Part shown: one piece after another, positions 24,493 through 63,250 of the stretch
Position numbering within the stretch: position 1 is the first letter of the stretch
How the letters are laid out: every line of letters starts with the position of its first letter
From: an uncultured archaeon
GTDB taxonomy: Archaea; Thermoproteota; Nitrososphaeria; Nitrososphaerales; Gagatemarchaeaceae
Assembly: GCA_963817525.1 (NCBI GenBank)
Contig: CAWFOU010000001.1
Span: 320,001-384,000 of the forward strand
Direction: 5' to 3'
DNA: 64,000 nt
Notes under the pieces: generated by a model
Database searches by the model: none
What the model was told of the DNA's origin: nothing
The model's input: the letters and a program-made list of their open reading frames with translations, nothing else
Program-made: the position numbers and the translations under genes

Positions 24493-24533
24493 GCCCCTAC
24501 GTGCCCTGATTGAGGGTGTGGATTCGTTGGTCT

Positions 24534-24789
24534 GGTTCTGATGCGCCTCCGTGAGACGCGCCTTCCTGGCATCTGCTCCAAGGATCAGAGTCGTCGTCTC
24601 GTTCCCCGTCACAGCTTCACCCGCCAGGCCGAGCCTGATGGCGTCGTTGCACATGAGGCGGAACTCCTCGAAGAGGGAGGACAGCTCCTCGGAGGCCTCG
24701 TACCGGAAGCTGATTGCCTCGACCGATTCCATGCCTTGAAGGGAGATTTCAAGATATAACCGCCCTTCTCCCGAAGACGCACGAGAGCC
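24534..24789 (-). mobile_element. 256-bp internally deleted tnpB element (MITE-like) retaining promoter, tnpB 5' stub and omegaRNA-like region
   Basis: TIRs GGTTCTGATGCGCCT / GGCTCTCGTGCGTCT (11/15); 8-bp direct repeats GTTGGTCT at 24526-33 and 24790-97; both ends homologous to 52244-53458; deletion joined at a CAGG microhomology. Confidence 0.9.
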
Positions 24790-24842
24790 GTTGGTCTATA
24801 CGCTAAAATACTTCGGCGGCCGTCGTTCTGGCACTCGTCAAA

Positions 24843-31067: not shown

Positions 31068-32101
31068 TTGTCTGAATATCGCGGTAGAATCGCAATAGGC
31101 GTGATAGTTGTCGTAGTCATTTCTGTAGGGTTCGCGGTCGAGTTGAACAACTTCCTGCCTGCCAATTCCGTCACGACGACGGGTTCTTCCAACTCGTCCT
31201 CACAGAGCGGGTCCACTTCAACGGTCACGGGAACCCTAGGAACCACGCCCGGCAACTGCCCCTCAGCTACCAATCAGACTTCAGAAGGATACCGGCTTGC
31301 CCTATATGCGCCCTCCACCGTCACCGCGGGGCAAACCGTGTGCATCAACACCAGTTTCATGAATATCTCCAACCAATCCGACCTGGCTCCAAAGAGCGAA
31401 TATGTGGTGGTGAGGAACTCGCCCTCGGGTGCACCTAGCTACATATTCCTCCAGACAACCTGCTTCTACTCGGGAGGGACCAGCAGCTTTGGCCCCGACA
31501 GTCTTGGCTGGAATTGCAGCGTGAGCTGGAACACAGCGAAGTCTTACGACGGTCTTGTCGCCACGAATGGCCTGTACACTGTCTGGGCGGTTGTGACCTA
31601 CTCGTGGGAGGCGACCCCAATCTTTGCAGTTGGCGACATAAACGTTAGGTCGACTGGCAATGAGTCGACGACCTCGACTTCGCAAACGGCGACCCAGCCT
31701 GTCAACGGGAGCAGCGGTGTCCCCACCTGCACGTTCCTAAACGGCCAGACTCACGTGCTGTTCCCGCCGCTTCAGCAGAGCGGCCCGATCTACCTCAAGG
31801 TGATCACATCGCAGGGGACTCTGACGAATGGGACGGTTTTCGCCGCACACCAGGCGTCGGCCTCTGACTCGCAGGGCTCCGCTGACTATTGCATCTCCCT
31901 GTCTGCGGATACCAACTCCACAGGATTCATGCAAATATCTGACACCGGAGCCGTCGAAACCAACGGGCTTCCTCTCGGCGGCGCGTACAACTTCACCGTG
32001 AGAGCTGGATATCAGGGCGAGACGTTCCAGGTTGCGGTGCCACAGATTGTGGTCCAACCCAATGCCATCACCTATATCACAATATCAATAGCCTCCGGCG
32101 A
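31068..32101 (+). pseudogene. Anchored surface protein interrupted near its 3' end by the IS6-family element (remainder at 34435-34527)
   Basis: Removing 32102-34442 restores ...ISIASGEVVELTVACEPGNACSSATATISGSGVG*; now terminates inside the TIR at 32117. Confidence 0.85.
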
Positions 32102-32179
32102 GGCTCTGGTAAGTTGATTGGACATTAGGCTTTCGACTTCTCCCTGTTAAGGCTCTGGACATGGCTCGCCTCGCAGAGC

Positions 32180-32467
32180 ATGTTTATTTTGGAGGGTGCA
32201 GATTCCGCCATCATGGAGCGGAGTCTGATATATCGCTCTGGATGGGCGATGGTCGTGGTAGGGTTGCTGCTCATTGTTGCAATCCCATACGAGAGTTTGA
32301 TTCCAGCCCCTAACGGCTCTGCCCGTAGCCCCCCTAACTTTGCGTTAGCATGGGTTGGGTTGGCAATTGTCGGGGTCGGCTTTCTGCTAACTCGCCTCAC
32401 AAAGTCAAAGCAGGAGGTCATTCCGTCTTCTCCTGAACCTTCTCAAGATGGCTCGCGTTCTGGATGA
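32180..32467 (+). CDS. Small two-TM passenger protein
   Basis: Two hydrophobic helices; converges on the transposase 3' end. Confidence 0.55.
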   Translation: MFILEGADSAIMERSLIYRSGWAMVVVGLLLIVAIPYESLIPAPNGSARSPPNFALAWVGLAIVGVGFLLTRLTKSKQEVIPSSPEPSQDGSRSG

Positions 32468-33571
32468 TTGTCAGCCATTTGTTGCGGCCCTCGACTGTTA
32501 TCCCGCAAGCCTCGGCGGGAGTCTTCCCATCAAGGCCCTCGTGCGGCCTAACGAAATTGTGGTAAATCTGGTAGCCCTTCAAGGCCGCCGAGTCTGTGGT
32601 CTTTAGGCCTCGCATGGTCTTCTCTCTGTCGCGTATCTCCCCATTCATGCGTTCCATCTTGTTGTTGTTCATGTCGCCCGCCATCCGGATGTGCTTGATG
32701 TGGATAGGGCTCTCTACCTCTCCGTAGGGGTGGGAGAACTCCTTCCGGTAGGCGTCGTGGAAGTTGTTGGCCCCGTCGCTGATGAAGGTCTTCGGAACCT
32801 TGCCCGTCCTCTGAATCGCGTCCTTGAACATGGGCCTTACATCGCTCGTCCCCTTGTTGTCGGCTACCTGTTGCGCTATCCAGAAGCGGCTCTCGTCGTC
32901 CATCATGGCGAAGAGATAATTCATGTTACCCTTCACTTTGAGATAGAGTTCGTCCGTCCTCCATGTGTCGGAGACGTTCGGGGTAATCTGGCTCAGATAC
33001 TTCTCCATCAGGCCGACATATTTCCTCATCCAGTTGAGGACGGTAACATGCGACACGTTCACGCCTTGCAGCCTCAGAAACTTCTGGACGTTGCGAAGGC
33101 TCTCTCCGGTGAAGTAGAGTTGCATCGCGGAGGTTATGGATTGGGGAGTCGCCCTCATCCCCTCGAACCCGAGATTGAGGGTGAACCGCTTGCCGCATTG
33201 CTTGCATGAGTATCGCTGGATGTCTCCGCTCTTGTTGTGGAGAAGGCCGTGCTTCACGACCCGCTCAGAGCCGCACGACAGGCAAGCCTGAAAGTCGAGC
33301 GGCACGATTCTCTTGGCGTTCTCTATTCGCCGCCGAATCTCAAGCGAGAGTTCGACGCCGAAGATGTGCTTGCACTTCTGCTCTCGGAAAACGAAGTCGG
33401 GGCAGGAGCAATTCCACCCCGATTCGGTGTGGAGAGGACGACATACTCTCCCGAGCCTGATTGGCTCTTGACGCGATACTCGTTAGCGTCAAGCCTTCTG
33501 ACGTTGCTCTCAGTCTGGGCTATTGTCTGGCCTCTCATCCTTCTAACCTCGGCTTCTTGTTGGGTCGCCAT
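32418..33571 (-). pseudogene. IS6-family DDE transposase with N-terminal SWIM finger and Zn ribbon, frameshifted
   Basis: WRTDE, FISDG, NNKMERMN, YHNFVRPH; CLSC..CKQC ribbon; in-frame upstream WNCSCPDF...KCKHI; 2-nt duplication at 33427-30 separates the ATG at 33571. Confidence 0.88.
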
Positions 33572-33576
33572 GTGCG

Positions 33577-33644
33577 TATCGACATCAATGGGTGTATATC
33601 GTATCTCTTATAAAGGTGTCTATACACACCTATTGCTGTCGATA
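33577..33644. promoter_or_regulatory. Symmetric divergent promoter/operator between transposase and RHH-like gene
   Basis: TATCGACATCAATGGGTGTATA (33577-98) is an imperfect inverted repeat of TATACACACCTATTGCTGTCGATA (33621-44), centred on CTTATAAAG. Confidence 0.7.
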
Positions 33645-33647
33645 AAG

Positions 33648-33782
33648 ATGATGAAACGCTACAACGTAGCCATGACCGAAGAGATGGAGGCCGCTCTTGA
33701 GAAGGAGCGGAGGAAACGCCTACTGGACTCGATACCAGAAACGATAAGGACGATTCTGAGTGAGCATTTAGCAAAGTCCTAA
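33648..33782 (+). CDS. Small ribbon-helix-helix-like regulator
   Basis: MMKRYNVAMTEEMEAALEKERRKRLLDSIPETIRTILSEHL: strand-helix-helix pattern. Confidence 0.7.
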   Translation: MMKRYNVAMTEEMEAALEKERRKRLLDSIPETIRTILSEHLAKS

Positions 33783-33784
33783 AA

Positions 33785-34237
33785 TTGAAGTTCACGCCCC
33801 TATACCTCTTCGGAAAGGCTCGTCTGCCTGCCGCAATAACGGCGATGTGGATTGCACTTTTCTTCATTGGAAGCGTCCTGTCAATTACCGTCTGGGCAGA
33901 GTTCGTCGCTTTCATCGTTGGATTCGTTGTTGCAGACCTCGTGTATGATTGGGTCATGAAGAAACGCGACCCTCGGACGCAGACCGATATGTTCCTGAAC
34001 TACTTTGTTGCTGTGATAGGCGGGTCGCTGATTGCCGAATACGCATCTTACAACTCCATCTCGACCCTGAATTTCTTTTACTCACTCGTCCCTACTCTCC
34101 CTCTCTGGGCTCGCAATGACTTTGTGGTTGCAATTGGGACGACTCTGGAGGTGATTCTTGGGTTTGGAGCGAGTTGGAGGCTTCTTGCAATCGATAGAAA
34201 GCTACGAAAGCGGCCCCCGAAACTGCTGCGGCAGTGA
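33785..34237 (+). CDS. Multi-TM passenger membrane protein
   Basis: Four hydrophobic segments, low GC, directly after the RHH-like gene. Confidence 0.7.
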   Translation: MKFTPLYLFGKARLPAAITAMWIALFFIGSVLSITVWAEFVAFIVGFVVADLVYDWVMKKRDPRTQTDMFLNYFVAVIGGSLIAEYASYNSISTLNFFYSLVPTLPLWARNDFVVAIGTTLEVILGFGASWRLLAIDRKLRKRPPKLLRQ

Positions 34238-34583
34238 TGTATAGCGTATCGCTGGACGACGCCCCGAGGTAGTTGCCGAGCAAAATTCCGGCTATCAGTC
34301 CGACACACCAACCCAGAAGTATTCCTATGAATGGCCCTGCCTGATTGAGCGGGTCATCCTCCCAATTGGGGCCATGTCCAGCCACTTAACAGGCCTCCTC
34401 CGTCTGGCCTGTGGCCAGACAACTTACCAGAGCCTCCGGCGAGGTGGTAGAGCTCACCGTAGCTTGCGAACCGGGAAACGCCTGCTCATCCGCAACAGCT
34501 ACCATCAGCGGCTCGGGCGTGGGCTGAAGATTCTACCAAAAGTGGATGTAGTGGGAAGGGCGTCAATCTCAGAGTGGAGAGCC

Positions 34584-50901: not shown

Positions 50902-51522
50902 TTGGCCGACTTGGCCAGAACGCAGGAATATCTCGAGGAGGTCTCCCAGATTGCGGCGAAGCTCGACCGAGGCTCGATCGACAAGGCGATAGGGGTCCTA
51001 TACGAGGGGTGGAAGAACGACAGCCAGGTCTTCGTGATAGGCAACGGGGGCTCGGCCTCCACCTCCACGCACTTCGCCTGCGACCTCAACAAGTGGGTCT
51101 CGGACGAGTCGGACAGGAAGTTCCGCGCGTTCTCGCTCGTGGACAACATCCCGCTCGTGAGCGCCCTCACCAACGACAACGGCTGGGGCGACATCTACTA
51201 CGAGCAGCTGAGGAACTTCTTCAGGAAAGGAGACGTCCTCGTCGCCATCAGCGTCCACGGGGGCTCTGGGAGCGACAAGGCCGGGCCCTGGTCCCAGAAC
51301 CTCCTGAAGGCGGTGAAGTACGCCAAGGACAACGGCGGCAAGGTCGTGGGCCTCTCGGGGTTCGACGGCGGAGTGCTCAAGACCGCCTCCGACGCGTGCA
51401 TCGTCGTCCCCGCGAACTCCACACCCCACGTCGAGGGGATGCACCTGGTCCTCACGCACCTCATGGCGGAGCAGCTCCGCGGAATGATTTCGTCCAAGGA
51501 CAAGAAGCCTTCGAGGTACTGA
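50902..51522 (+). CDS. gmhA: Phosphoheptose isomerase (SIS domain)
   Basis: IGNGGSASTSTHF, TND, SGFDGG, VEGMH. Confidence 0.85.
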   Translation: MADLARTQEYLEEVSQIAAKLDRGSIDKAIGVLYEGWKNDSQVFVIGNGGSASTSTHFACDLNKWVSDESDRKFRAFSLVDNIPLVSALTNDNGWGDIYYEQLRNFFRKGDVLVAISVHGGSGSDKAGPWSQNLLKAVKYAKDNGGKVVGLSGFDGGVLKTASDACIVVPANSTPHVEGMHLVLTHLMAEQLRGMISSKDKKPSRY

Positions 51523-51524
51523 CC

Positions 51525-52187
51525 TCAGCCGGATGTTCTGCTCGCGCGGCCTTTCACTCGGGCTCGCTTCGTCTCACTCTCGATCCTCGCAAGGAGGTCT
51601 GGGACCTGCTTCAGCGAGGGCAGCATGTAGTCCGGCTGCGCGTCCTGCTCCTCCATCAGCCGGGTGAGGAAAGTCGTGACGTGCCCTAACAGGATGGTCT
51701 TGCACCCTGCCGCATTGCCAGCCTTTACGTCGTCCAGCGCGTCGCCCACGAAGAAGGAGCTGCTAATGTCGACGCCGTTCTCCTTGGCCGCCCGAAGCAG
51801 AAGCCCTGGCTTCGGCTTCCTGCACTCGCAGTCCGCCTTGTACTTCTTGACCAGCGCGTCGGGGTGGTGGAGGCAATAGTACTCCCCGTCCAGCGCGCCT
51901 CCGCGCCTGGCCAGCTCTGCCCTGACCATCGCGTTCATCTTCTCGAACTCCGAGTAAGTGAGCTGGCGCTTCGCCACCCCTGGCTGGTTGGAGACAAGGA
52001 TCGCCTTGAAGCCTAGCCCCTTGATCTTCCTCACAGAGTCCCCCGCGTAGGGGTGGACCCTGAGCTGCTTCGCCGACAGGGGGCTGCCGATGCGCCCTTC
52101 GTCAGGGTTGTACTCGAGGTCGTTGAGCACCCCGTCCCGGTCGATGAAAACGGCCCTTTTTCGTCTCATTTCACGCGCGCCAGGCAT
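51525..52187 (-). CDS. gmhB: Heptose-1,7-bisphosphate phosphatase (HAD IIIA); alternative start 52169
   Basis: FIDRDGVLN, SNQPG, CLHHP...CECRKPKPG, VGD..DD. Confidence 0.88.
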   Translation of the reverse strand: MPGAREMRRKRAVFIDRDGVLNDLEYNPDEGRIGSPLSAKQLRVHPYAGDSVRKIKGLGFKAILVSNQPGVAKRQLTYSEFEKMNAMVRAELARRGGALDGEYYCLHHPDALVKKYKADCECRKPKPGLLLRAAKENGVDISSSFFVGDALDDVKAGNAAGCKTILLGHVTTFLTRLMEEQDAQPDYMLPSLKQVPDLLARIESETKRARVKGRASRTSG

Positions 52188-52300
52188 TTTTCAGGACGTC
52201 TGGGAGGAGACGACCCGTAACCGACTTATGCCTTTCGCAGGCGTGCTTTGGTGCGTCTTAGGGAGATGGGTGGTTATATCGTGGAATCGCCTTTCAAGGC

Positions 52301-53375
52301 GTGGAGTCCGTCAGGGCAATCCGATTCAGGTACGAGGCCTCCGAGGAGCTCTCGTCCCTCTTCGAGGAGTTCCGCCTCATGTGCAACGACGCCATCAGGA
52401 TAGCCTTGAAGGAAGCCCAAGAGCAGGTTCAGGCTCATCGAGCTCGCCTACCCCCGGCTCAAGGAGTACGGGCTCCACACGCACTACATCCTCTCGGCCT
52501 GCGAGGTCGCCTATACCGCCTGCAAGAACCGGAAGAGAAAGTCCACACCCCGCATCACGAGGCCGTTCATCAAGCTCGACAGCCAGACGTACACGCTGAA
52601 CCACCTCATCTTGAGGATCCCGACGCGGCCAAGGCACTTGATCTATCTGACCCTTCACGCGTCCAACTACCACCTCTCCTTCGTGGACGACCCTGCTCTG
52701 AAGCGGGGTTCCATCACCATTACCGACACAGCGCCCGCGGTAGCTTTCACTAGGAAGACCGCCGAGATCGAGCCCCGCGGGAGGATGGGGATAGACATCA
52801 ACGAGAGGAACGTGACGTGGGCCGACTCGGCAGGGACAGTACTGAAAGAGGACACGTCGGCGGTCGCGGAGCTAAAGGAGAGATACAAGGCGCTCAGGGC
52901 GAAGATCGCCGAGCGGACGAGCAAGGATAGGCGGATAATGCGAGAGCTTCTCTCAAAATATGGAAGGCGCGAGAGGGACAGGACGACCCAGGCTCTTCAC
53001 CGCGTCACGAAGAAGATCGTCGAACACGCGAAGGCGAACGGCCTGGCGATCGTCATGGAGAACCTCAAGGGAATAAGGAAGCTCTATCGCCGGGGGAACG
53101 GACAAGGCGCGTCGTTCAGGGGGCGGATGAACTCATGGGCCTTCCGTGAGGTCCAACGACAGATCGAGTACAAGGCGCGGTGGGCAGGGATGCCCGTCAA
53201 CTACGTCAACCCGAGAGGCACGTCCCGAAAATGCCCGAAGTGTGGCTCCTCTCTCATACGACTCGAAGGGCGCAGGCTCTTGTGCCCTTCGTGCAAGCAG
53301 GTCCAGGATAGGGACGACATTGCCGCGATGAACATAATGGCCTGCGCGGTTCCGCAGGCTCGGCCTGGCGGGTGA
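52301..53375 (+). pseudogene. tnpB: TnpB/Cas12f-like RNA-guided nuclease, one frameshift at ~52412
   Basis: RuvC-I GIDIN, RuvC-II VMENL, CPKC..CPSC, RuvC-III DRDDIAAMNI all intact; the 3' frame is open from 52413. Confidence 0.9.
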
Positions 53376-53458
53376 AGCTGTGATGTGGAACGAGACGACG
53401 ACTCTAATCCTCGGAGCAGATGCCAGGAAGGCGCGTCTCCCGAAGGGGCACCAGAATC
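53355..53458 (+). ncRNA. Putative omegaRNA/reRNA scaffold
   Basis: Overlaps the tnpB 3' end; pairings CCTGGC/GCCAGG and GAGACG/CGTCTC (pseudoknot-like); conserved in the deleted copy at 24534-24635. Confidence 0.65.
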
Positions 53459-53516
53459 CGCAGGCGCAGTAAATCTTATACCCTCGCCCGCCACACCACG
53501 GGACAGGCGCGCGAAC

Positions 53517-54197
53517 GTGGTCCAGTTCTTCTTAGACACGGCCTCTCTGAACGAGATCGAGGAGGTCTCACGGCAGGGTGTGACCGAAGGGGTCACCACC
53601 AACCAGATGATCATCTTGAAGGAGGGGAAGGTCGACTTCAAGCGACGGATCCTGGAGATCTGCCGTCAGGTAAAGGGCCCCGTCAGCGTCGAGACCACAA
53701 AGAACAGCGTCTCCGACCTACTTGCGCAGGGCAGGGAGTTCGCCTCGTGGCACAAGAACATAGTCGTCAAGGTGGCGATGCACGGCGACGGCAGGGGGCT
53801 CGAGGTGGTGCACCAGCTGACCAAGGAGCACATCAAGACGAACATGACCTGCATGATGACCTTCAACCAGCTCGTCCTCGCGTCCAAGGCAGGCGCGACC
53901 TACGTCTCTCTCTTCTACAACAGGGCCATAGAGGCGCGCGAGAACCCTCTACAGATAATCAAGGACTACGTCGCCCTGGCCAAGGAGAACGAACCCATGG
54001 GCAGGCTGATTGTCGGGAGCATCAGGAAGCCGGAGGACGTCGCCCAGGCCGTCGCGGCTGGGGCACACATCATCACCGTGCCCTTCAAGATCCTGAAGCA
54101 GATGCCTTTCAACAAGCGGACCGAGGAGACCATCGAGGAGTTCGACAAGGCGTGGGGCGAGTTCGAATCGATGAAGAAGGCTGCGATTGTCCGGTGA
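53517..54197 (+). CDS. tal: Transaldolase (small FSA/TalC type)
   Basis: FFLDTA, GVTTNQ, GPVSVE, NIVVKV, GATYVSLF.NR, GSIR. Confidence 0.88.
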   Translation: MVQFFLDTASLNEIEEVSRQGVTEGVTTNQMIILKEGKVDFKRRILEICRQVKGPVSVETTKNSVSDLLAQGREFASWHKNIVVKVAMHGDGRGLEVVHQLTKEHIKTNMTCMMTFNQLVLASKAGATYVSLFYNRAIEARENPLQIIKDYVALAKENEPMGRLIVGSIRKPEDVAQAVAAGAHIITVPFKILKQMPFNKRTEETIEEFDKAWGEFESMKKAAIVR

Positions 54198-54323
54198 GGA
54201 CGACTAGCCACTCCCAGTCGAAACACAGGGCCTAGCCCGGCGCGCACTGGAGCTAGATGACCGCTTTGCAACGTCAACCTTCCAGCCCGCGCACACGAAG
54301 CGGGGGAGGGGAGTGATTCGCCC

Positions 54324-55274
54324 AGGAGAGCGCTTGTCACCGGCGGCCAGGGGTTCATCGGGAGCCACCTCGTCGACCGCCTCCTGAAGGACGACTGGGA
54401 CGTGGCGGTGCTCGACAGCCTCCTTACTGGGCGCCGCTCCAACCTGGGCCAACACAAGGGCAACCGCAGCCTCAAGATCATCGAGGGGGACATCAGGGAC
54501 CCGGAGACCGTGTCGAAGAGCTCGAAGGGGTGCGACGCCGTATTCCACCTCGCTGCACACGCGCTGATGCGGGTAAGCCTCGGAGACCACCGGGCCGACC
54601 TCGAGCACAACATCGTGGGCACCCTGAACGTCTTGGATAGCATGGTGGCCAACGGCGTCCCGGACTTTGTGTTCGCCTCCACCTCCGCGCTCTACGGGGA
54701 GGCCGAGGTCGTCCCAACGCCCGAGACCTACGCGGGCATCCAGACCTCCATCTACGGGGCAGCCAAGCTCGCGGGAGAGGGCTACGCCTCCGCCTTCGCC
54801 GAGTTCAGCCCCATCAAGGTATGGGCCTACAGGTTCGGGACAGTGCTGGGCGAGAGGTGCAGGAGGGGGGCCATATGGGACTTTACCCACAAGCTGCTCG
54901 CCGACCCTTCCAAGCTTGAGATACTGGGCAACGGGAGGCAAAGCAAGGACTACATGTCGGTGAAGGACTGCGTCGACGGGATCATGATCGGCCACCAAAA
55001 GGCAAAGGGCCGCGTGAACATCTTCAACCTGGGCCTCCAGGAGCAGACCACCGTGGACCAGCTCGCCGACATCGTCATCGAGGAGATGGGGCTGCCCGGG
55101 GTCAAGAAGGCCTACACGGGCGGGGCGAGGGGGTGGGTGGGCGACAACCCTGTGGTCTACCTCTCTACGAAGAAGATCAAGGCCCTGGGGTGGAGGCCGA
55201 AGACATCGCCGACAGAGGCGATAAGGCAGACCGCAAGGTGGACCCTGAAAGAAGTGGGCTGGCGCGGGAAGTAG
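54324..55274 (+). CDS. NAD-dependent epimerase/dehydratase (start unresolved)
   Basis: In-frame RRALVTGGQGFIGSHL upstream of the track start; HLAA, FASTS, YGAAK. Confidence 0.9.
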   Translation, partial: RRALVTGGQGFIGSHLVDRLLKDDWDVAVLDSLLTGRRSNLGQHKGNRSLKIIEGDIRDPETVSKSSKGCDAVFHLAAHALMRVSLGDHRADLEHNIVGTLNVLDSMVANGVPDFVFASTSALYGEAEVVPTPETYAGIQTSIYGAAKLAGEGYASAFAEFSPIKVWAYRFGTVLGERCRRGAIWDFTHKLLADPSKLEILGNGRQSKDYMSVKDCVDGIMIGHQKAKGRVNIFNLGLQEQTTVDQLADIVIEEMGLPGVKKAYTGGARGWVGDNPVVYLSTKKIKALGWRPKTSPTEAIRQTARWTLKEVGWRGK

Positions 55275-57865: not shown

Positions 57866-60800
57866 TTGCAGGAGACGACAACCAAACAACTCGACCTAGC
57901 CGAGAGGCTTCGCGCGCTCACCACTCCCGCGACCGACCTCGAGGAGGGCTTGCTGGTCTCGGCCACCTACGACGGCGACACCCGGAGGGCCGTGCTCAAG
58001 TTCTACGACGCGAAGCAGGAGCGGGTCTGGCTCTGGGAGGACAAGAGCGGGCACAAGCCCTACTGCTACACCAAACTCTCAGACCAGGAGATTGCTTCCG
58101 CTGGAGTCGAGGTCGGCAAAAGCGGGATAACCGGGATTGTGCCGGAGAAGAGGCGTGACCTCCTCAACGACGCGGAGATAACGGTCAAGAAGATCACCGC
58201 GACCGACCCTCTCGCCATCGGAGGGTCGCCCACGTCCCTCCGGGAGAAGATGGAGTGCTGGGAGGCCGACATCAAGTACTTTGAGAACTACGTCTACGAC
58301 AGGGGGCTCAGGGTCGGGACCTACTACAAGATCGCCCAGGGGGAGGTCACTCCCGTGCAGAAGGAGGTCGCCGGCGAAGTCAAGCGCTCGCTCGATGCTA
58401 TCGTAGCCAAGGCATCCGGGGACGCCGCCCTCTACATCAAGGACTGGGCGGAGCTCCTGGGGCAGCCCCTCTCGAACTTCAAGCGGATCGCCTGTGACAT
58501 CGAGGTCGCGAACGAGGAGAACCGCATCCCCGACCCCGAGATAGCGGACAGAGAGGTCATCGCAGTCTCCTTCTACAACGACAGGGAGTCGATAGTCTAC
58601 CTCATCGACAAGTCGGGGGAGGACAGGTCGCTCGACGGAGCGCTCACGGGCTACACCCCGACGGTCTTCGCCGACGAGGCGTCGCTCCTCCGCGCGACCT
58701 TCGCGAAGATGATGGAGTACCCATTCCTGATCACGTTCAACGGAGACGACTTCGACCTCCGCTATCTGAAGCACCGCGCGATGAGGAAGGAGATCGGCAT
58801 CAGGGAGGAGGAGATACCCATCGCCCTCCAGAGGCAGGAGGCGTCGCTCAAGCATGGCGTCCACATCGACCTATACCGCTTCTTCAACAACCGATCGATA
58901 CAGGTCTACGTCTACAACAACAGGTACACCGAGCACACGCTCAATGGGATAGCGGAGGCCCTCCTCGGCAAGGAGAAGATCCCCTTCGAGGGGAACATCG
59001 CGGAGCTCCCACTTGTCGAGCTCGCGGACTACTGCCTCAACGACTCGACGCTCACCTACGACCTTACCGCGGCCAACGACTCCCTCCTCATGAAGATGCT
59101 GCTGGTCATCGCGAGGATCGCCAAGATGCCCATGAACGACGTCGCCCGCCTGGGCGTCTCCAACTGGATCCGGAGCATGATCTTCTACGACCACCGCCGG
59201 ATAGGCGCGCTCATCCCACGCTCGGACGAGCTCAGGCAGAAGGGCGGGGCCTCCTCCGAGGCGATAATCAAGGGGAAGAAGTACAAGGGAGGGCTCGTCA
59301 TCGAGCCCAAGCCGGGCATCTACTTCGGGGTATCCGTCCTCGACTTTGCGTCCCTCTACCCCAGCATCATCAAGGTCCACAACCTCTCATACGAGACTGT
59401 GAACTGCATCCACGAGGAGTGCAGGTCCAACAGGGTCCCCGACACGGACCACTGGATATGCACGAAGCGCAGCGGGATAGAAAGCCTCCTCATCGGCTCG
59501 CTTCGCGACCTCAGGGTGGGGCACTACAAGGCGCTCTCCAAGGACAAGGCCCTCCCGAAGGAGAGCAAGGACCTCTACAGCACGGTGACGCAGGGGCTCA
59601 AGGTCATCCTCAACGCGTGCTTCACAGGAGACACGCTGGTGGTCACCCCGACCGGGATCAAGAACATCAAGGACTTTAGGGTGGGAGACCAAGTCATCAA
59701 CGTCAACCCTGAGACCCTCGAGGTCGAGATGGACAAGGTCGTGGCTGTCCAGGCCTATCACTACGATGGAGACATCTACCACTTCCAGGACAAGAGGTTC
59801 GTCGACCTCATGGTCACCCCCAACCACAGACTCCTCACCATCGATAGGCGCAAGTCCTCAAAGAGCGGGGCAATCTTTAGGTCGGCGGAGGAGGTACGGG
59901 ACCTCGCGAACGTCGCGATCCCGAAACTGCGAACGGGTGTGGGACGGGACTCGGCCAACAACAGAGTCTCGATGCTAAAGGTTGCCAAGGAGATTGGCGT
60001 ATTTGCCAGCGTCTATCCGCCCTCGGGAATTCGCTTGATCAACTGGTTCAGGACGCTTCCATCCGAGCTGCAGAAGAATATCCGCGAGAACGGACGCGTC
60101 AGGAAACTCGGAACCCAACCCACATTGGAAAAGCCGGTAAAGAACCGGCAGTCCCGCTACGAGCTGCCTGCCGACGCGGTCGAAGAGGTCGACGTCGACG
60201 CCGTCGAGGCTGCCGGGGGCCGGGTCCTACTCGGGGAGTCGCACTCAAGGCAAGTCCCGGCTCGCTACCTTGCGGCGGACCTCGCCTCGCTCAGCGGTTG
60301 GTTCGTCTCCGCAGGCAACCCACACTCTTCGCAGATGAAGATATACGCGAGCGGCCGAGTCCGCGGCAAGACCTCGGGCATCATGATCTCACAAGGGTTC
60401 GGGAAAGGGAATGTCATGGGAACCCAATACAGGGCGGAGATACAAGGTCTCCTCGGCAGGCTCGGGCTCAGAAGTATCCAAGATTCGGGCCGAAACAAGT
60501 ACTTCAAGGTCAGCAGCTCGATCCTAAACCGCTGGGTTCTCTCGCAGTGCTACGTCGAAGGTGAGGGTCACGGCGCCACCGCGAAGAGGATCCCTGACTT
60601 CGTGTTCGAGTCGAGCGACACGATGAAGGAATTCCTCGCCTCGGTGTACAAGGGCGACGGCAACAGAAGGCGTGTCAGATACTCCACGGTGAGCACGCGT
60701 CTTGCGAATGACATGGTCGTCCTGCTGAGTCTCCTTGGGTACAAGGCCAAGCTGTCCTACGAGAGCGAGTCACACATCTACAGGATTGTCTTCAAGAACG

Positions 60801-63250
60801 TCAGTTCGAAGCTCACTTTTTCAGGGCAGGAGAAGCTCAAGCAGCTGAACATCCTGCCCTTCGAAGGGACCGTCTTCTGTGTGACCACCGAGAGAAACCA
60901 CACGGTCATCGCAGGTAGGAACGGTAGGTTCGTCCCGGTCGGTCAGTCCTACGGGGTGATGGGATTCGAGACCTTCGCCCTTTACTGTCTCCCGGTAGCG
61001 GACGCGACGGCGGCGTTCGGGAGGGACGCGATCACCAGGACGATAGAGAAATGTAAAAATGAAGGGGTTTCTGTGATATATTCTGATACTGACAGCCTTT
61101 TTATTGAAAATCCTAACAAGGACAAAATCGCGGATGTCCTAAGGTGGGCGGACAAGGAGCTCGGGGTCGAGCTCGAGGTAGACAAGACCTACCGATACGT
61201 CGCCTTCAGCCAGCTCAAGAAGAACTACTTCGGGGTGCTCCAGGACGGGACCGCGGACATCAAAGGTTTGACGGGGAAAAAATCGGTCGACGGGGAAACC
61301 CCCATTCTCGCGCGCATCGACGGGATCACTACGTTCACAACCGTGGCGGACGTCTATAGCAAGTTCGTCGAGAAACATTCTGTGGAACTCATCAGCGTCG
61401 GCGACGATTTGCGCTCAAACTGGGCACCTATCAACGATGCAACGCGGCACGAAGTTGACGACGTCTATGTGATTCGAACCAGCAAGGGCAGGATCCTGAA
61501 GCTGTCCGGGGATCACAGTGCGTTCTTCATTGATGCTTGTGGCCGTCTGCACAGTAAGGAAACAAGAAACGCCCTTGTGGGCGACGTCCTCGTGGGAACT
61601 CGATTCTTCCCCCAAGTCGCTCCTTCGAAAAGCGTCGATTTGAAACGGTATTTGCCAGAAACGACCGACCGGAATGGAATGCTTTTCTCCTCGAAAGCTC
61701 ACTCGACGACTGGCGTTCCGATTCCTAGGACCTTGGCGCTGACCAAAGACGTCGGAATGATTTTCGGAGTGTTCGTTGCGGAAGGATCTACGGCCAAGGA
61801 CCGTGCTTCAAGGTCGAACGACATCTCGCAGAACGAAATCTCAAATCCGGAGGTTTGTCGTGCTTTGGTAGCCGCGTGGTCTGCGACCTTTGGACGGCGA
61901 ATCAAACAGTTTGGCCCCCCAAACAAACGCGTATTCTATCTCCCGATACTCTACGCCGAACTCTTCAGGGAAACATGCGGCACAAGAAGCGCAGACAAGC
62001 ACGTCCCTGATTTCATCTTCAACGCGCCTTTGGAAGTCATCGAGAGCTTCCTTCGCGGGCTCTTCTCTGGAGATGGCTTCAGTAATGGAAGAAAGATCTC
62101 AATTGCTTCCGAGAGTAAGAGATTGATTGAAGAGACCGGCTACCTTCTTGGCTATTTTGACATCGATACGAGGATCCGAGTGTGCTACAACTCACGTTTC
62201 AACATAGAGTACTATCAACTCAGCGTAATTGGGACGTCAAGCAGGAGGAGGTTCCAAGCGCGGATTGGGTTCCTCCAGCCAAGGTCCCAGAAGATGCCCG
62301 ATAACGGACCACGCAACAAGGAACTACTCCCCATTTCCACCGTGGGGTTGGTGGAAGTGAAGGCAAGCATACTCAAGAGATTGGGACTGAAAAGATTCAG
62401 GCACGTAAACATGCATGATATCAGATTCTTCAACCTGAGCCTTCTCCAGCACTACAACGAAGTGATCGATTCCTTGGCCAGACATGCGAATGACGTAGAG
62501 TCTGCCACGCTGGCGAGAATCAGGAGAATGTTGAACACTCAGGATGTCACATATGATGAGATTATCGAGCTGAAACGAGTTCCCGGAAGCTGCGTGATGT
62601 ACGATTTCTCGGTTCCGAGTACAGAGCGATTCGTTGCGGGAAACCTCCCGACGCTGCTCCACAACAGCCAGACCCCCGAATTCTTGAAGAATGAGTTCTA
62701 CCAGGTGCTCGACATCCTCGGCGCGGTCTACAGCCAGGCAGACTTCGACCAGGCCAAATCGAGGATCAAGAAGCTCCTCACCGACATGGTGACCTCGCTG
62801 AAGGATAGGAAGGTCCCCATCGAGGACCTCTCGTTCAACGTGATGATGGGCAAGTCCATCAGCGGGTACAAGTCAACAAGGTCCCCCGAGCCTCCCAGGA
62901 AAGACGCCCAGGCCCGGCAGGCTCAGGGCTTGCTCCACGAGAGGCCGGAGGCGCCCCAGGAGAGCGGTTTCAACGCGATATCTATGGATGGGAAGCCCCA
63001 GCACGTCAAGGCCGCGATCCTCCTCGCCAGGAGCTCCAATCGCGAGGTGAAGGCAGGCGAGCTGATATCGTTCGTGAAGACCAAGGGCGGGGAGGGGGTC
63101 AAGCCCACGAGCCAGGCCAAGCCGGAGGACATCGATGTCGACAAGTACATCGAGTATGCGAGCTCGATGTTCGATCAGGTGCTCAGCGCCCTCGACCTCT
63201 CCTTCGAGTCTGTGGTCCCGAAGACCAGCCTCGACGCGTTCTGGTCCTAG
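57866..63250 (+). CDS. polB1: Family B DNA polymerase (PolB1) with two inteins
   Basis: Exo motifs DIEV, FNGDDFD, YCLND; DFASLYPS, KVILNA/SYG, YSDTDS, KGLTGKK/S; C-terminal PIP-like TSLDAF. Confidence 0.96.
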   Translation: MQETTTKQLDLAERLRALTTPATDLEEGLLVSATYDGDTRRAVLKFYDAKQERVWLWEDKSGHKPYCYTKLSDQEIASAGVEVGKSGITGIVPEKRRDLLNDAEITVKKITATDPLAIGGSPTSLREKMECWEADIKYFENYVYDRGLRVGTYYKIAQGEVTPVQKEVAGEVKRSLDAIVAKASGDAALYIKDWAELLGQPLSNFKRIACDIEVANEENRIPDPEIADREVIAVSFYNDRESIVYLIDKSGEDRSLDGALTGYTPTVFADEASLLRATFAKMMEYPFLITFNGDDFDLRYLKHRAMRKEIGIREEEIPIALQRQEASLKHGVHIDLYRFFNNRSIQVYVYNNRYTEHTLNGIAEALLGKEKIPFEGNIAELPLVELADYCLNDSTLTYDLTAANDSLLMKMLLVIARIAKMPMNDVARLGVSNWIRSMIFYDHRRIGALIPRSDELRQKGGASSEAIIKGKKYKGGLVIEPKPGIYFGVSVLDFASLYPSIIKVHNLSYETVNCIHEECRSNRVPDTDHWICTKRSGIESLLIGSLRDLRVGHYKALSKDKALPKESKDLYSTVTQGLKVILNACFTGDTLVVTPTGIKNIKDFRVGDQVINVNPETLEVEMDKVVAVQAYHYDGDIYHFQDKRFVDLMVTPNHRLLTIDRRKSSKSGAIFRSAEEVRDLANVAIPKLRTGVGRDSANNRVSMLKVAKEIGVFASVYPPSGIRLINWFRTLPSELQKNIRENGRVRKLGTQPTLEKPVKNRQSRYELPADAVEEVDVDAVEAAGGRVLLGESHSRQVPARYLAADLASLSGWFVSAGNPHSSQMKIYASGRVRGKTSGIMISQGFGKGNVMGTQYRAEIQGLLGRLGLRSIQDSGRNKYFKVSSSILNRWVLSQCYVEGEGHGATAKRIPDFVFESSDTMKEFLASVYKGDGNRRRVRYSTVSTRLANDMVVLLSLLGYKAKLSYESESHIYRIVFKNVSSKLTFSGQEKLKQLNILPFEGTVFCVTTERNHTVIAGRNGRFVPVGQSYGVMGFETFALYCLPVADATAAFGRDAITRTIEKCKNEGVSVIYSDTDSLFIENPNKDKIADVLRWADKELGVELEVDKTYRYVAFSQLKKNYFGVLQDGTADIKGLTGKKSVDGETPILARIDGITTFTTVADVYSKFVEKHSVELISVGDDLRSNWAPINDATRHEVDDVYVIRTSKGRILKLSGDHSAFFIDACGRLHSKETRNALVGDVLVGTRFFPQVAPSKSVDLKRYLPETTDRNGMLFSSKAHSTTGVPIPRTLALTKDVGMIFGVFVAEGSTAKDRASRSNDISQNEISNPEVCRALVAAWSATFGRRIKQFGPPNKRVFYLPILYAELFRETCGTRSADKHVPDFIFNAPLEVIESFLRGLFSGDGFSNGRKISIASESKRLIEETGYLLGYFDIDTRIRVCYNSRFNIEYYQLSVIGTSSRRRFQARIGFLQPRSQKMPDNGPRNKELLPISTVGLVEVKASILKRLGLKRFRHVNMHDIRFFNLSLLQHYNEVIDSLARHANDVESATLARIRRMLNTQDVTYDEIIELKRVPGSCVMYDFSVPSTERFVAGNLPTLLHNSQTPEFLKNEFYQVLDILGAVYSQADFDQAKSRIKKLLTDMVTSLKDRKVPIEDLSFNVMMGKSISGYKSTRSPEPPRKDAQARQAQGLLHERPEAPQESGFNAISMDGKPQHVKAAILLARSSNREVKAGELISFVKTKGGEGVKPTSQAKPEDIDVDKYIEYASSMFDQVLSALDLSFESVVPKTSLDAFWS
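59618..60946 (+). mobile_element. Intein 1 (443 aa), Cys start, Gly-Gln end, LAGLIDADG-type domain
   Basis: CFTGDT..., block B VTPNHRL, GWFVSAG, ASVYKGDG, VFCVTTERNH...VGQ/S. Confidence 0.92.
61283..62665 (+). mobile_element. Intein 2 (461 aa), Ser start, His-Asn end, LAGLIDADG-type domain
   Basis: SVDGET..., LSGDHS, GVFVAEG, FLRGLFSGDG, MYDFSV..LLHN/S; markedly lower GC. Confidence 0.92.

Follow-up and report, generated by a model that had tools for sequence, protein, structure and literature searches.

A decayed archaeal TnpB element probably built on the terminal inverted repeats of co-resident IS6-like transposons

Introduction

In the current view, TnpB assists transposons with scarless excision, such as those of the IS605 and IS607 types. 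The canonical IS200/IS605 and IS607 elements that carry it have neither inverted repeats nor a target duplication, and their target-adjacent motif (TAM) abuts the left end of the element; in the ISDra2 type, studied by Karvelis in 2021 and by Meers in 2023, the guide reportedly comes from the DNA that follows the right end on its 3' side, and the TAM lies on the left-end side. Here, we describe a TnpB element of a different build, located in a stretch of 64,000 nucleotides (referred to as the window; positions 320,001 to 384,000 of contig CAWFOU010000001.1, assembly GCA_963817525.1) from an uncultured archaeon of the family Gagatemarchaeaceae. The element has terminal inverted repeats and lies between two copies of an octamer that is present once at the empty sites of related genomes, its ends are homologous to those of IS6-like elements with a DDE transposase, its interior holds no transposase, a structured RNA occupies its right end, and a short motif recurs on one side of the insertions of its family. 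We consider it likely that the feature is a decayed, non-autonomous archaeal transposon with TnpB and an omegaRNA as cargo, and that it is bounded by the terminal inverted repeats of an IS6-like (DDE_Tnp_IS240-type) family resident in the same genome.

The likeness to canonical TnpB-omegaRNA systems lies in the RuvC triad and zinc ribbon, seen in an intact paralogue, and in a structured RNA that extends from the 3' end of the gene to the right end of the element. In contrast to the canonical arrangement, the likely partner here is a DDE transposase and not a Y1 or serine recombinase, and eight variable duplicated bases, the predicted first eight nucleotides of the guide, stand between the flanking motif and the left end.

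Association of TnpB with DDE transposons is itself known. The passages on this subject in Altae-Tran 2023 (PMC10691335) describe six DDE-transposase-associated branches, DDE-1 to DDE-6, with inverted terminal repeats, and solo TnpBs that resemble transposase-bearing elements in their ends and for which mobilisation in trans is suggested; for DDE-5, the supplementary information mentions a short motif at a distance of 8 bp upstream from the transposon end, and IS630, for DDE-6, is the only family named in these passages. In the corresponding part of the review by Kojima 2026 (PMC13565253), the DDE families listed for TnpB are ISL2, IS630 and IS1031, not IS6. The element family of the window resembles DDE-1 to DDE-6 in the inverted repeats around TnpB, the position of the tnpB 3' end close to the transposon end, and ends as in transposase-bearing elements; its IS6/IS240 partner, 8-bp duplications, empty sites and statistics on a CGTTT-like motif are not in the text on these branches. 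Since DDE-associated solo TnpBs were described in 2023, elements of this kind were already known, and the original prediction, which was made from the sequence alone and called the IS6-TnpB partnership probably undescribed, overstated its novelty while being largely right on anatomy and mechanism. The clade of the window may already be among DDE-1 to DDE-5, with which it was compared by text only. Literature searches of paper texts returned no relevant report of TnpB with IS6, and the IS6-type partner and the present geometry may be new with respect to the published passages.

The IS6/IS26 family is summarised by Varani 2021 (PMC7986276), in the relevant parts of which the family rule is 8-bp direct target repeats, classical members measure 0.7-0.9 kb, only one known member has a passenger gene, and TnpB has 0 occurrences. 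Compared with this description, the elements studied here have the 8-bp repeats, the short inverted repeats starting with GG, a DDE transposase matching the IS240 Pfam model, and MITE (miniature inverted-repeat transposable element) derivatives. They differ from it in that the partner elements are 2-4 kb long, have extra open reading frames (ORFs) and encode an N-terminal zinc-finger extension, and in that the TnpB elements are free of transposase. For Fanzor in eukaryotic DDE transposons, the pertinent passages of PMC13565253 describe a fixed short duplication (TA or TTAA) that is read as part of the TAM, with its 3' copy in the scaffold. Both cases are alike in having a TnpB homologue within transposons with inverted repeats and target duplications; here, in contrast, the duplication is variable and can therefore not be the TAM, and the conserved motif lies outside it.

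The window element and its target-site duplication

The element (Table 1) starts with TGCTTTGGTGCGTCT and terminates, read as the reverse complement, with GATTCTGGTGCCCCT, and these ends form imperfect inverted repeats of about 23 bp. The subfamily consensus of the left repeat is GGYTCTGGTRCGYCTTCSGRAGA, and both terminal dinucleotides of the window copy are mutated, the right one to TC from CC. Downstream of its single frameshift, the frame of tnpB is uninterrupted up to the stop codon; the product matches Pfam Cas12f1-like_TNB (1.3e-20), and about 85 nt of non-coding DNA separate the stop codon from the right end of the element. We regard the copy as recently dead because tnpB is frameshifted and both terminal dinucleotides are mutated. 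One contig of DNA run X2 has two extra bases (GA) after position 52411, where the frameshift lies, and could represent an in-frame allele of the window copy or a paralogue aligned at 90% likeness.

The octamer CGCAGGCG brackets the element on both sides, and orthologous sites identify it as a duplication. In four congeners (L209, L212, L213 and L214), the intergenic site defined by the same pair of host genes is element-free, and exactly eight bases stand between the conserved left flank TATGCCTTT and the right flank CAG(T/C)AA..TCTTATA. Given this single octamer, the window copy was inserted with an 8-bp target duplication. The same pattern recurs when element ends are set by inverted-repeat identity alone, as was done for 111 related full-length tnpB loci: 16 loci qualify, eight of these have flanking octamers that are at least 7/8 identical (six perfect), and a ninth has a flanking repeat of 8-9 bp displaced by one base. 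A 7/8 octamer match has a chance of about 4e-4 per pair, and about 0.006 such pairs would be expected. Comparison of positions 51000-54700 with four DNA runs (contigs, depth about 3-6) covered the region in fragments, with no joint spanning the element and with loose ends that stem from other copies; the reads thus yield no empty site at population level, and the empty sites above are those of other species.

Two further full copies, 89% identical by blastn, lie elsewhere in this genome, together with several fragments. The copy at C1:206989-208205 (genome G000) has an intact gene (C1:207046-208122) for a TnpB of 358 amino acids and is flanked by ACGAGTGT and ACGAGCGT; among the four own-genome copies that run from end to end, three have matching flanking octamers (8/8, 7/8 and 8/8). 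The window also holds a 256-bp MITE-like deletion derivative, whose two parts are 88% and 92% identical to the full element by blastn and whose 8-bp duplication is perfect; the copy of the duplication on the left-end side is followed by ATACG at 24798-24802, which is CGTAT on the strand of the element. Between them, the copy comparison, the empty sites and the repeat-defined loci bear out the proposal that a TnpB element here has IS6-like inverted ends and a true 8-bp duplication. Elsewhere in the genome, a 352-bp MITE of another subfamily (G000 C8:66489-66840) has the ends GGCTCTGGTAACTCTTCGG and a right part that resembles the omegaRNA scaffold; its left flank has an AT-rich box followed by a terminal GCTTG, and only 5/8 positions agree between the octamers on either side.

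Ends shared with IS6-like elements

GGYTCTG ends are common to the family of the window element, to the MITE and to the IS6-like element of the window. This heptamer is also the core that holds family-wide; the longer end consensus first proposed, GGYTCTGGTGCGYCT, stands for the window subfamily and fails beyond it. The ends probably also resemble those of IS257/IS26. In the window, the two ends of the IS6-like element are identical at 20/24 positions, and its transposase lies in two frames (about 33571-33389 and 33434-32433), which tblastn with an intact paralogue recovers as two pieces. This paralogue, P0002, has 378 amino acids and combines N-terminal zinc-finger regions with a DDE core; on Pfam DDE_Tnp_IS240 the transposases score 46.6-55.1 bits (P0002 46.6), with a cut-off of 27. 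Eighteen transposase-bearing elements with GGYTCTG ends were collected from the own genome and from relatives, and 17 of them have perfect 8-bp duplications, the remaining one, L043, matching at 7/8.

The homology between the two kinds of element extends beyond the heptamer, the ends of TnpB elements agreeing with IS6-like ends over about 24-30 nt. Over positions 8-30, TnpB-element ends agree with their best-matching IS6-like end at 14.9/23 on average, compared with 10.0 +/- 1.4 for shuffled controls, and a match of at least 15 of 23 is reached by 15/32 TnpB-element ends and by 0.19% of controls. Moreover, different TnpB subfamilies pair with different IS6-like subfamilies (L063 with L086, L058 with L203 and L028 with L079), the ends of the first two pairs being nearly identical.

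A tblastn search with the IS6-like transposase over 77 loci (the TnpB loci obtained in the search for relatives and from the genome collection, together with L021, with the 80 metagenome loci, mostly on short contigs, outside this set) found no transposase inside TnpB elements. The sole match at a TnpB locus, L043, belongs to a separate adjoining element with its own ends and its own duplication. TnpB was likewise not found by tblastn in 13 IS6-like elements, and an autonomous element encoding both proteins appeared in neither set. With no transposase inside the own ends of any of the 111 full-length tnpB loci scanned for ends, the TnpB elements are non-autonomous and at most derivatives. The simplest reading of the end homology is that they are probably moved in trans by the IS6-like transposase, as the original prediction had it.

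Further IS6-like elements lie at G000 C7:735011-737128, C2:11656-14025 and C7:465011-468102 and at loci L079-L205, and several of their extra ORFs resemble small membrane proteins. The N-terminal extension of the transposase scores 29.2 bits on NCBIfam IS1_IS1595_Zn (cut-off 28) and shows, by eye, a SWIM-like CxC...CxH pattern. About 370 bp past the right end of a C7 element lies a partial IS6-like transposase fragment (G000 C7:737494-737676; L021 2987-3118), from which it follows that insertions are clustered or nested there.

TnpB, its structured RNA and their distribution

The intact TnpB paralogue, P0001 (358 amino acids), scores 120.5 bits on NCBIfam NF040570 guided_TnpB, with a cut-off of 100, and its relatives in the PDB are TnpB and Cas12f. 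In four diverse members (43-64% identity), the motifs GIDxNE, xVxExL (at its E) and DRD are invariant, corresponding to D166, E254 and D339, as are C312/C315/C329/C332. By their motifs, D166/E254/D339 are taken to be the RuvC catalytic triad. The window copy retains the catalytic and zinc-ribbon residues, its frameshift lying upstream of them.

The last 180 nt of 26 elements were aligned and folded by RNAalifold. The fold comprises 21 predicted pairs, of which 13 show compensatory changes and one helix of which joins 53364-70 with 53421-27 in the window copy. Aligned cells are paired at 94.7%, compared with 77.2% in shuffles, none of 500 shuffles being as high, and the paired share falls to 39-46% when the partners are slid. 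Like an omegaRNA scaffold, the structure starts within the 3' end of tnpB and finishes at the right inverted repeat, and covariation thus supports the earlier proposal that this repeat forms the 3' end of a conserved structured RNA. An Rfam scan of two element loci at E values up to 1 gave no match. We infer that the RNA is the omegaRNA scaffold, together with its transcription and its 3' boundary.

Element DNA matches 20 of the 24 other genomes of the same family (19/22 within the genus) and has no match in any of 16 genomes that represent other families of the order. Protein-guided searches of the genome collection gave 54 loci, labelled as Thaumarchaeota/Nitrososphaerota with a few as Bathyarchaeia and one as Jordarchaeales, and related elements are also present in soil metagenomes (248 confirmed stretches, of which 80 form the metagenome set used here). 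Many short solo matches in related genomes cover only element positions of about 1118-1194, the omegaRNA part, and this type accounts for most of the 10 matches in G009; such short matches may be MITEs or other TnpB families with the same scaffold.

A motif on the tnpB-upstream side of insertions

The DNA flanking the duplications was compared over 27 independent insertions with duplications of at least 7/8, the left ends being anchored by the octamer found after the right end. Duplicates were dropped (L127, which equals L126, and L179 and L186, which equal the L157 insertion) and three own-genome copies added. The contigs of L157, L179 and L186 show one insertion with the duplication GTTTTTGA and near-identical flanks, common to related strains and hence counted once.

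A strict motif, [CT][CG]T[TA][TGA] at positions -5 to -1 relative to the duplication (consensus CGTTT), is present on the left, tnpB-upstream side in 17/27 insertions, compared with 0/27 on the right side, 0/36 flanks of transposase-bearing IS6-like elements and 1.3% of positions in the genome background. T occupies position -3 in 23/27 insertions; the window copy has CCTTT and the MITE CGTAT. In the metagenome subset, which lay outside the definition of the motif, there are 7/15 strict matches and several more near-matches. The T-rich motif directly 5' of the duplication, for which two examples had originally given a hint, is thus far more strongly supported by the wider set. At the right end, 21 of 24 related elements finish with GAACC, which differs from the motif at all five positions. 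The TnpB of these elements, at 358 amino acids, likely has a 5-nt T-rich TAM. Judging by position and composition, the CGTTT-like motif fits the role of the TAM, with a guide starting at the duplicated 8 bp: the register of motif, octamer and flank is what a TAM would have to show for a guide with the octamer as its first bases.

The flanks also show a second, weaker feature, a TATA-like and AT-rich box at a distance of 6-16 nt from the duplication; the box is found on 17/27 left and 7/27 right sides of TnpB elements. It is equally a feature of the IS6-like elements, where it lies at the same distance outside the duplication in 15/36 flanks and 14/18 elements, with a background of 8.5%. This box may point to promoter-proximal DNA as a generally preferred place of insertion, or as one where insertions survive. 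Relative to the orientation of the transposase gene, cases judged by eye number about 7 sense and 3 antisense, which is few and not consistent.

The box bears on the explanation that competes best with a TAM, namely that the CGTTT-like motif is a target preference of the transposition machinery or a product of selection for promoter sides, and that TnpB is irrelevant to where copies lie. The surroundings of IS6-like elements are indeed non-random, TnpB elements share the AT-rich box on their left sides, and the motif of the window copy is part of conserved intergenic DNA that separates divergent genes, which makes a promoter context at this site plausible. The CGTTT part, however, is missing from all scored flanks of transposase-bearing elements with like ends, is confined to the tnpB-upstream side and strand, and stands in exact register with the duplication, which is expected of a TAM and not of promoter selection. 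We hold this explanation to be unlikely.

Proposed mechanism and its difficulties

From the anatomy of the family we infer mobilisation in trans, the guide boundary, the role of the TAM and a benefit from homing, as follows. The IS6-like transposase from separate 2-4-kb elements in the same genomes would recognise the GGYTCTG... ends in trans, and the element would be inserted via the 8-bp staggered cut typical of the IS6-like family. The omegaRNA scaffold would end at the right inverted repeat, and with this end point a read-through guide would start with the duplicated octamer and continue into the right flank. A pre-insertion allele, which consists of motif, octamer and right flank, would then be cut by TnpB beside the presumed CGTTT-like TAM, and repair after cutting would copy the element in (homing or drive). 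The filled left junction would be spared, as it offers only the TAM and eight matching bases, and so would the filled right junction, which has GAACC at the TAM position. In this scheme, surviving insertions would be enriched in the motif because of a homing advantage. Among the possible sources of that enrichment we rank a drive-like advantage with coexisting alleles first, site choice by TnpB second, and a transposase preference peculiar to the cargo-bearing elements third. The second of these could take the form of targeted insertion, in which TnpB, with or without omegaRNA, recruits or positions the IS6-like transpososome at a TAM and integration occurs at the TAM-proximal 8 bp; we view this as decidedly unlikely.

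Several points weigh against an IS6-like TnpB element that spreads by homing. With regard to the duplications, seven of the 16 repeat-defined relatives have no matching octamers, most of the 111 loci were unscorable, with ends too decayed or too near a contig edge, and the C7 own-genome copy is without matching flanking octamers. With regard to the motif, its strict form was defined after about the first dozen cases and is missing in 10/27 insertions, with nothing similar in L045, L059, L146 and L164. As for the partner, the IS6-like elements exceed classical IS6 in length and in their passenger ORFs, P0002 scores 116.4 bits on NCBIfam transpos_IS6, its top-scoring family, for which the cut-off is 125, and the Pfam IS240 DDE match is present in only 3/5 TnpB-bearing congeners, with no IS240-type DDE found in G021 (69% complete) and G011 (84% complete). 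Finally, IS6 transposition is given as replicative, through cointegrates, in the parts of Varani 2021 (PMC7986276) on mechanism, and the donor is not excised, so the benefit of TnpB in restoring an excised copy is not obviously applicable. A homing benefit would need empty alleles in the same cell, which polyploidy or DNA exchange might supply.

The score of P0002 and the two congeners with no IS240-type DDE found would also favour another transposase with similar ends, either of a different DDE family or a lost dedicated enzyme, in which case the IS6 likeness would reflect shared end ancestry only; in addition, for the window subfamily the match to the ends of the IS6-like element in the window is limited to the first 10-11 nt. 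This is countered by end homology of 17-19/23 past the heptamer in several TnpB/IS6 pairs, which holds subfamily by subfamily, by the equal length of the duplications and by the presence of both kinds of element in the same genomes. Moreover, no other transposase was found in or consistently beside the TnpB loci, the query being the IS6-like protein only. We consider a partner of this kind very unlikely. There is next to no chance that the element is an ordinary IS200/IS605- or IS607-type tnpB-only element (IS1341-like) with coincidental inverted repeats and octamers: TnpB-only elements are common in archaea and usually classed with IS200/IS605, according to the passages of PMC10691335 that treat them, but octamer duplications recur at independent insertions (8/16 repeat-defined elements) and empty sites hold exactly one octamer, and these together with the inverted repeats of about 24 nt common to DDE elements contradict such an assignment.

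The coordinates of the features discussed are collected in Table 1. Apart from these, a very long ORF of 1794 amino acids lies at 57866-63250 (+), near the end of the window.

Table 1. Features of the TnpB element, the MITE-like derivative and the IS6-like element in the window (positions are those of the window).
Feature	Position	Strand	Description	Basis
Candidate TAM, CCTTT	52231..52235	+	Directly 5' of left duplication	Motif enrichment; conserved host sequence in empty sites
Left copy of 8-bp target-site duplication, CGCAGGCG	52236..52243	+		Read directly; single octamer in empty orthologous sites
TnpB element, probably non-autonomous, decayed	52244..53458	+	1215 bp	blastn against same-genome copies; ends compared
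Left terminal inverted repeat	52244..52266	+	Tip mutated, TG for GG	Aligned to other copies
tnpB pseudogene	52301..53375	+	GTG start; one frameshift near 52408-52412; stop 53373-75	Translations
omegaRNA-like structured scaffold	about 53340..53458	+	Overlaps tnpB 3' end, reaches right end	Covariation
Right terminal inverted repeat	53436..53458	-	Tip mutated, GATTC for GGTTC	
Right copy of 8-bp target-site duplication, CGCAGGCG	53459..53466	+		Read directly; empty orthologous sites
Predicted guide-encoding flank	53459..53478	+	Duplication and about 12 nt downstream	Analogy with canonical TnpB; position of CGTTT-like motif
8-bp duplication beside MITE, GTTGGTCT	24526..24533		Right-end side of element	Read; copy comparison
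MITE-like deletion derivative	24534..24789	-	256 bp; about 150 bp of left end and about 105 bp of omegaRNA-bearing right end	
8-bp duplication beside MITE, GTTGGTCT	24790..24797		Left-end side of element	Read; copy comparison
Left 8-bp duplication of IS6-like element, TCCGGCGA	32094..32101		Perfect	
IS6-like DDE element	32102..34434	-	2333 bp; ends GGCTCTGGTAAGTTG; extra ORFs	Pfam DDE_Tnp_IS240, 1.1e-14
Right 8-bp duplication of IS6-like element, TCCGGCGA	34435..34442		Perfect	

Implications

Why TnpB rides on DDE transposons is raised as a question in the 2026 review (PMC13565253, in the section concerned). The family described here constitutes a natural data set on that question, with dozens of independent insertions, exact boundaries and empty sites, and it also offers a likely partner transposase, a structured guide RNA and a candidate TAM 8 bp from the end of the element. 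Testable predictions follow for the TAM, the start of the guide, mobilisation in trans and the dependence of the TAM bias on TnpB. Provided that none of the published DDE branches includes the IS6-type partnership, this would be the seventh case in which a DDE transposon captured TnpB independently.

Should targeted insertion be true, the system would amount to a pre-CRISPR counterpart of Cas12k-guided transposition in which the nuclease is active. In a milder version, TnpB could make a replicative DDE transposon a gene drive in polyploid or DNA-exchanging archaea, which, if true, would mean that TnpB has a function in the absence of excision.

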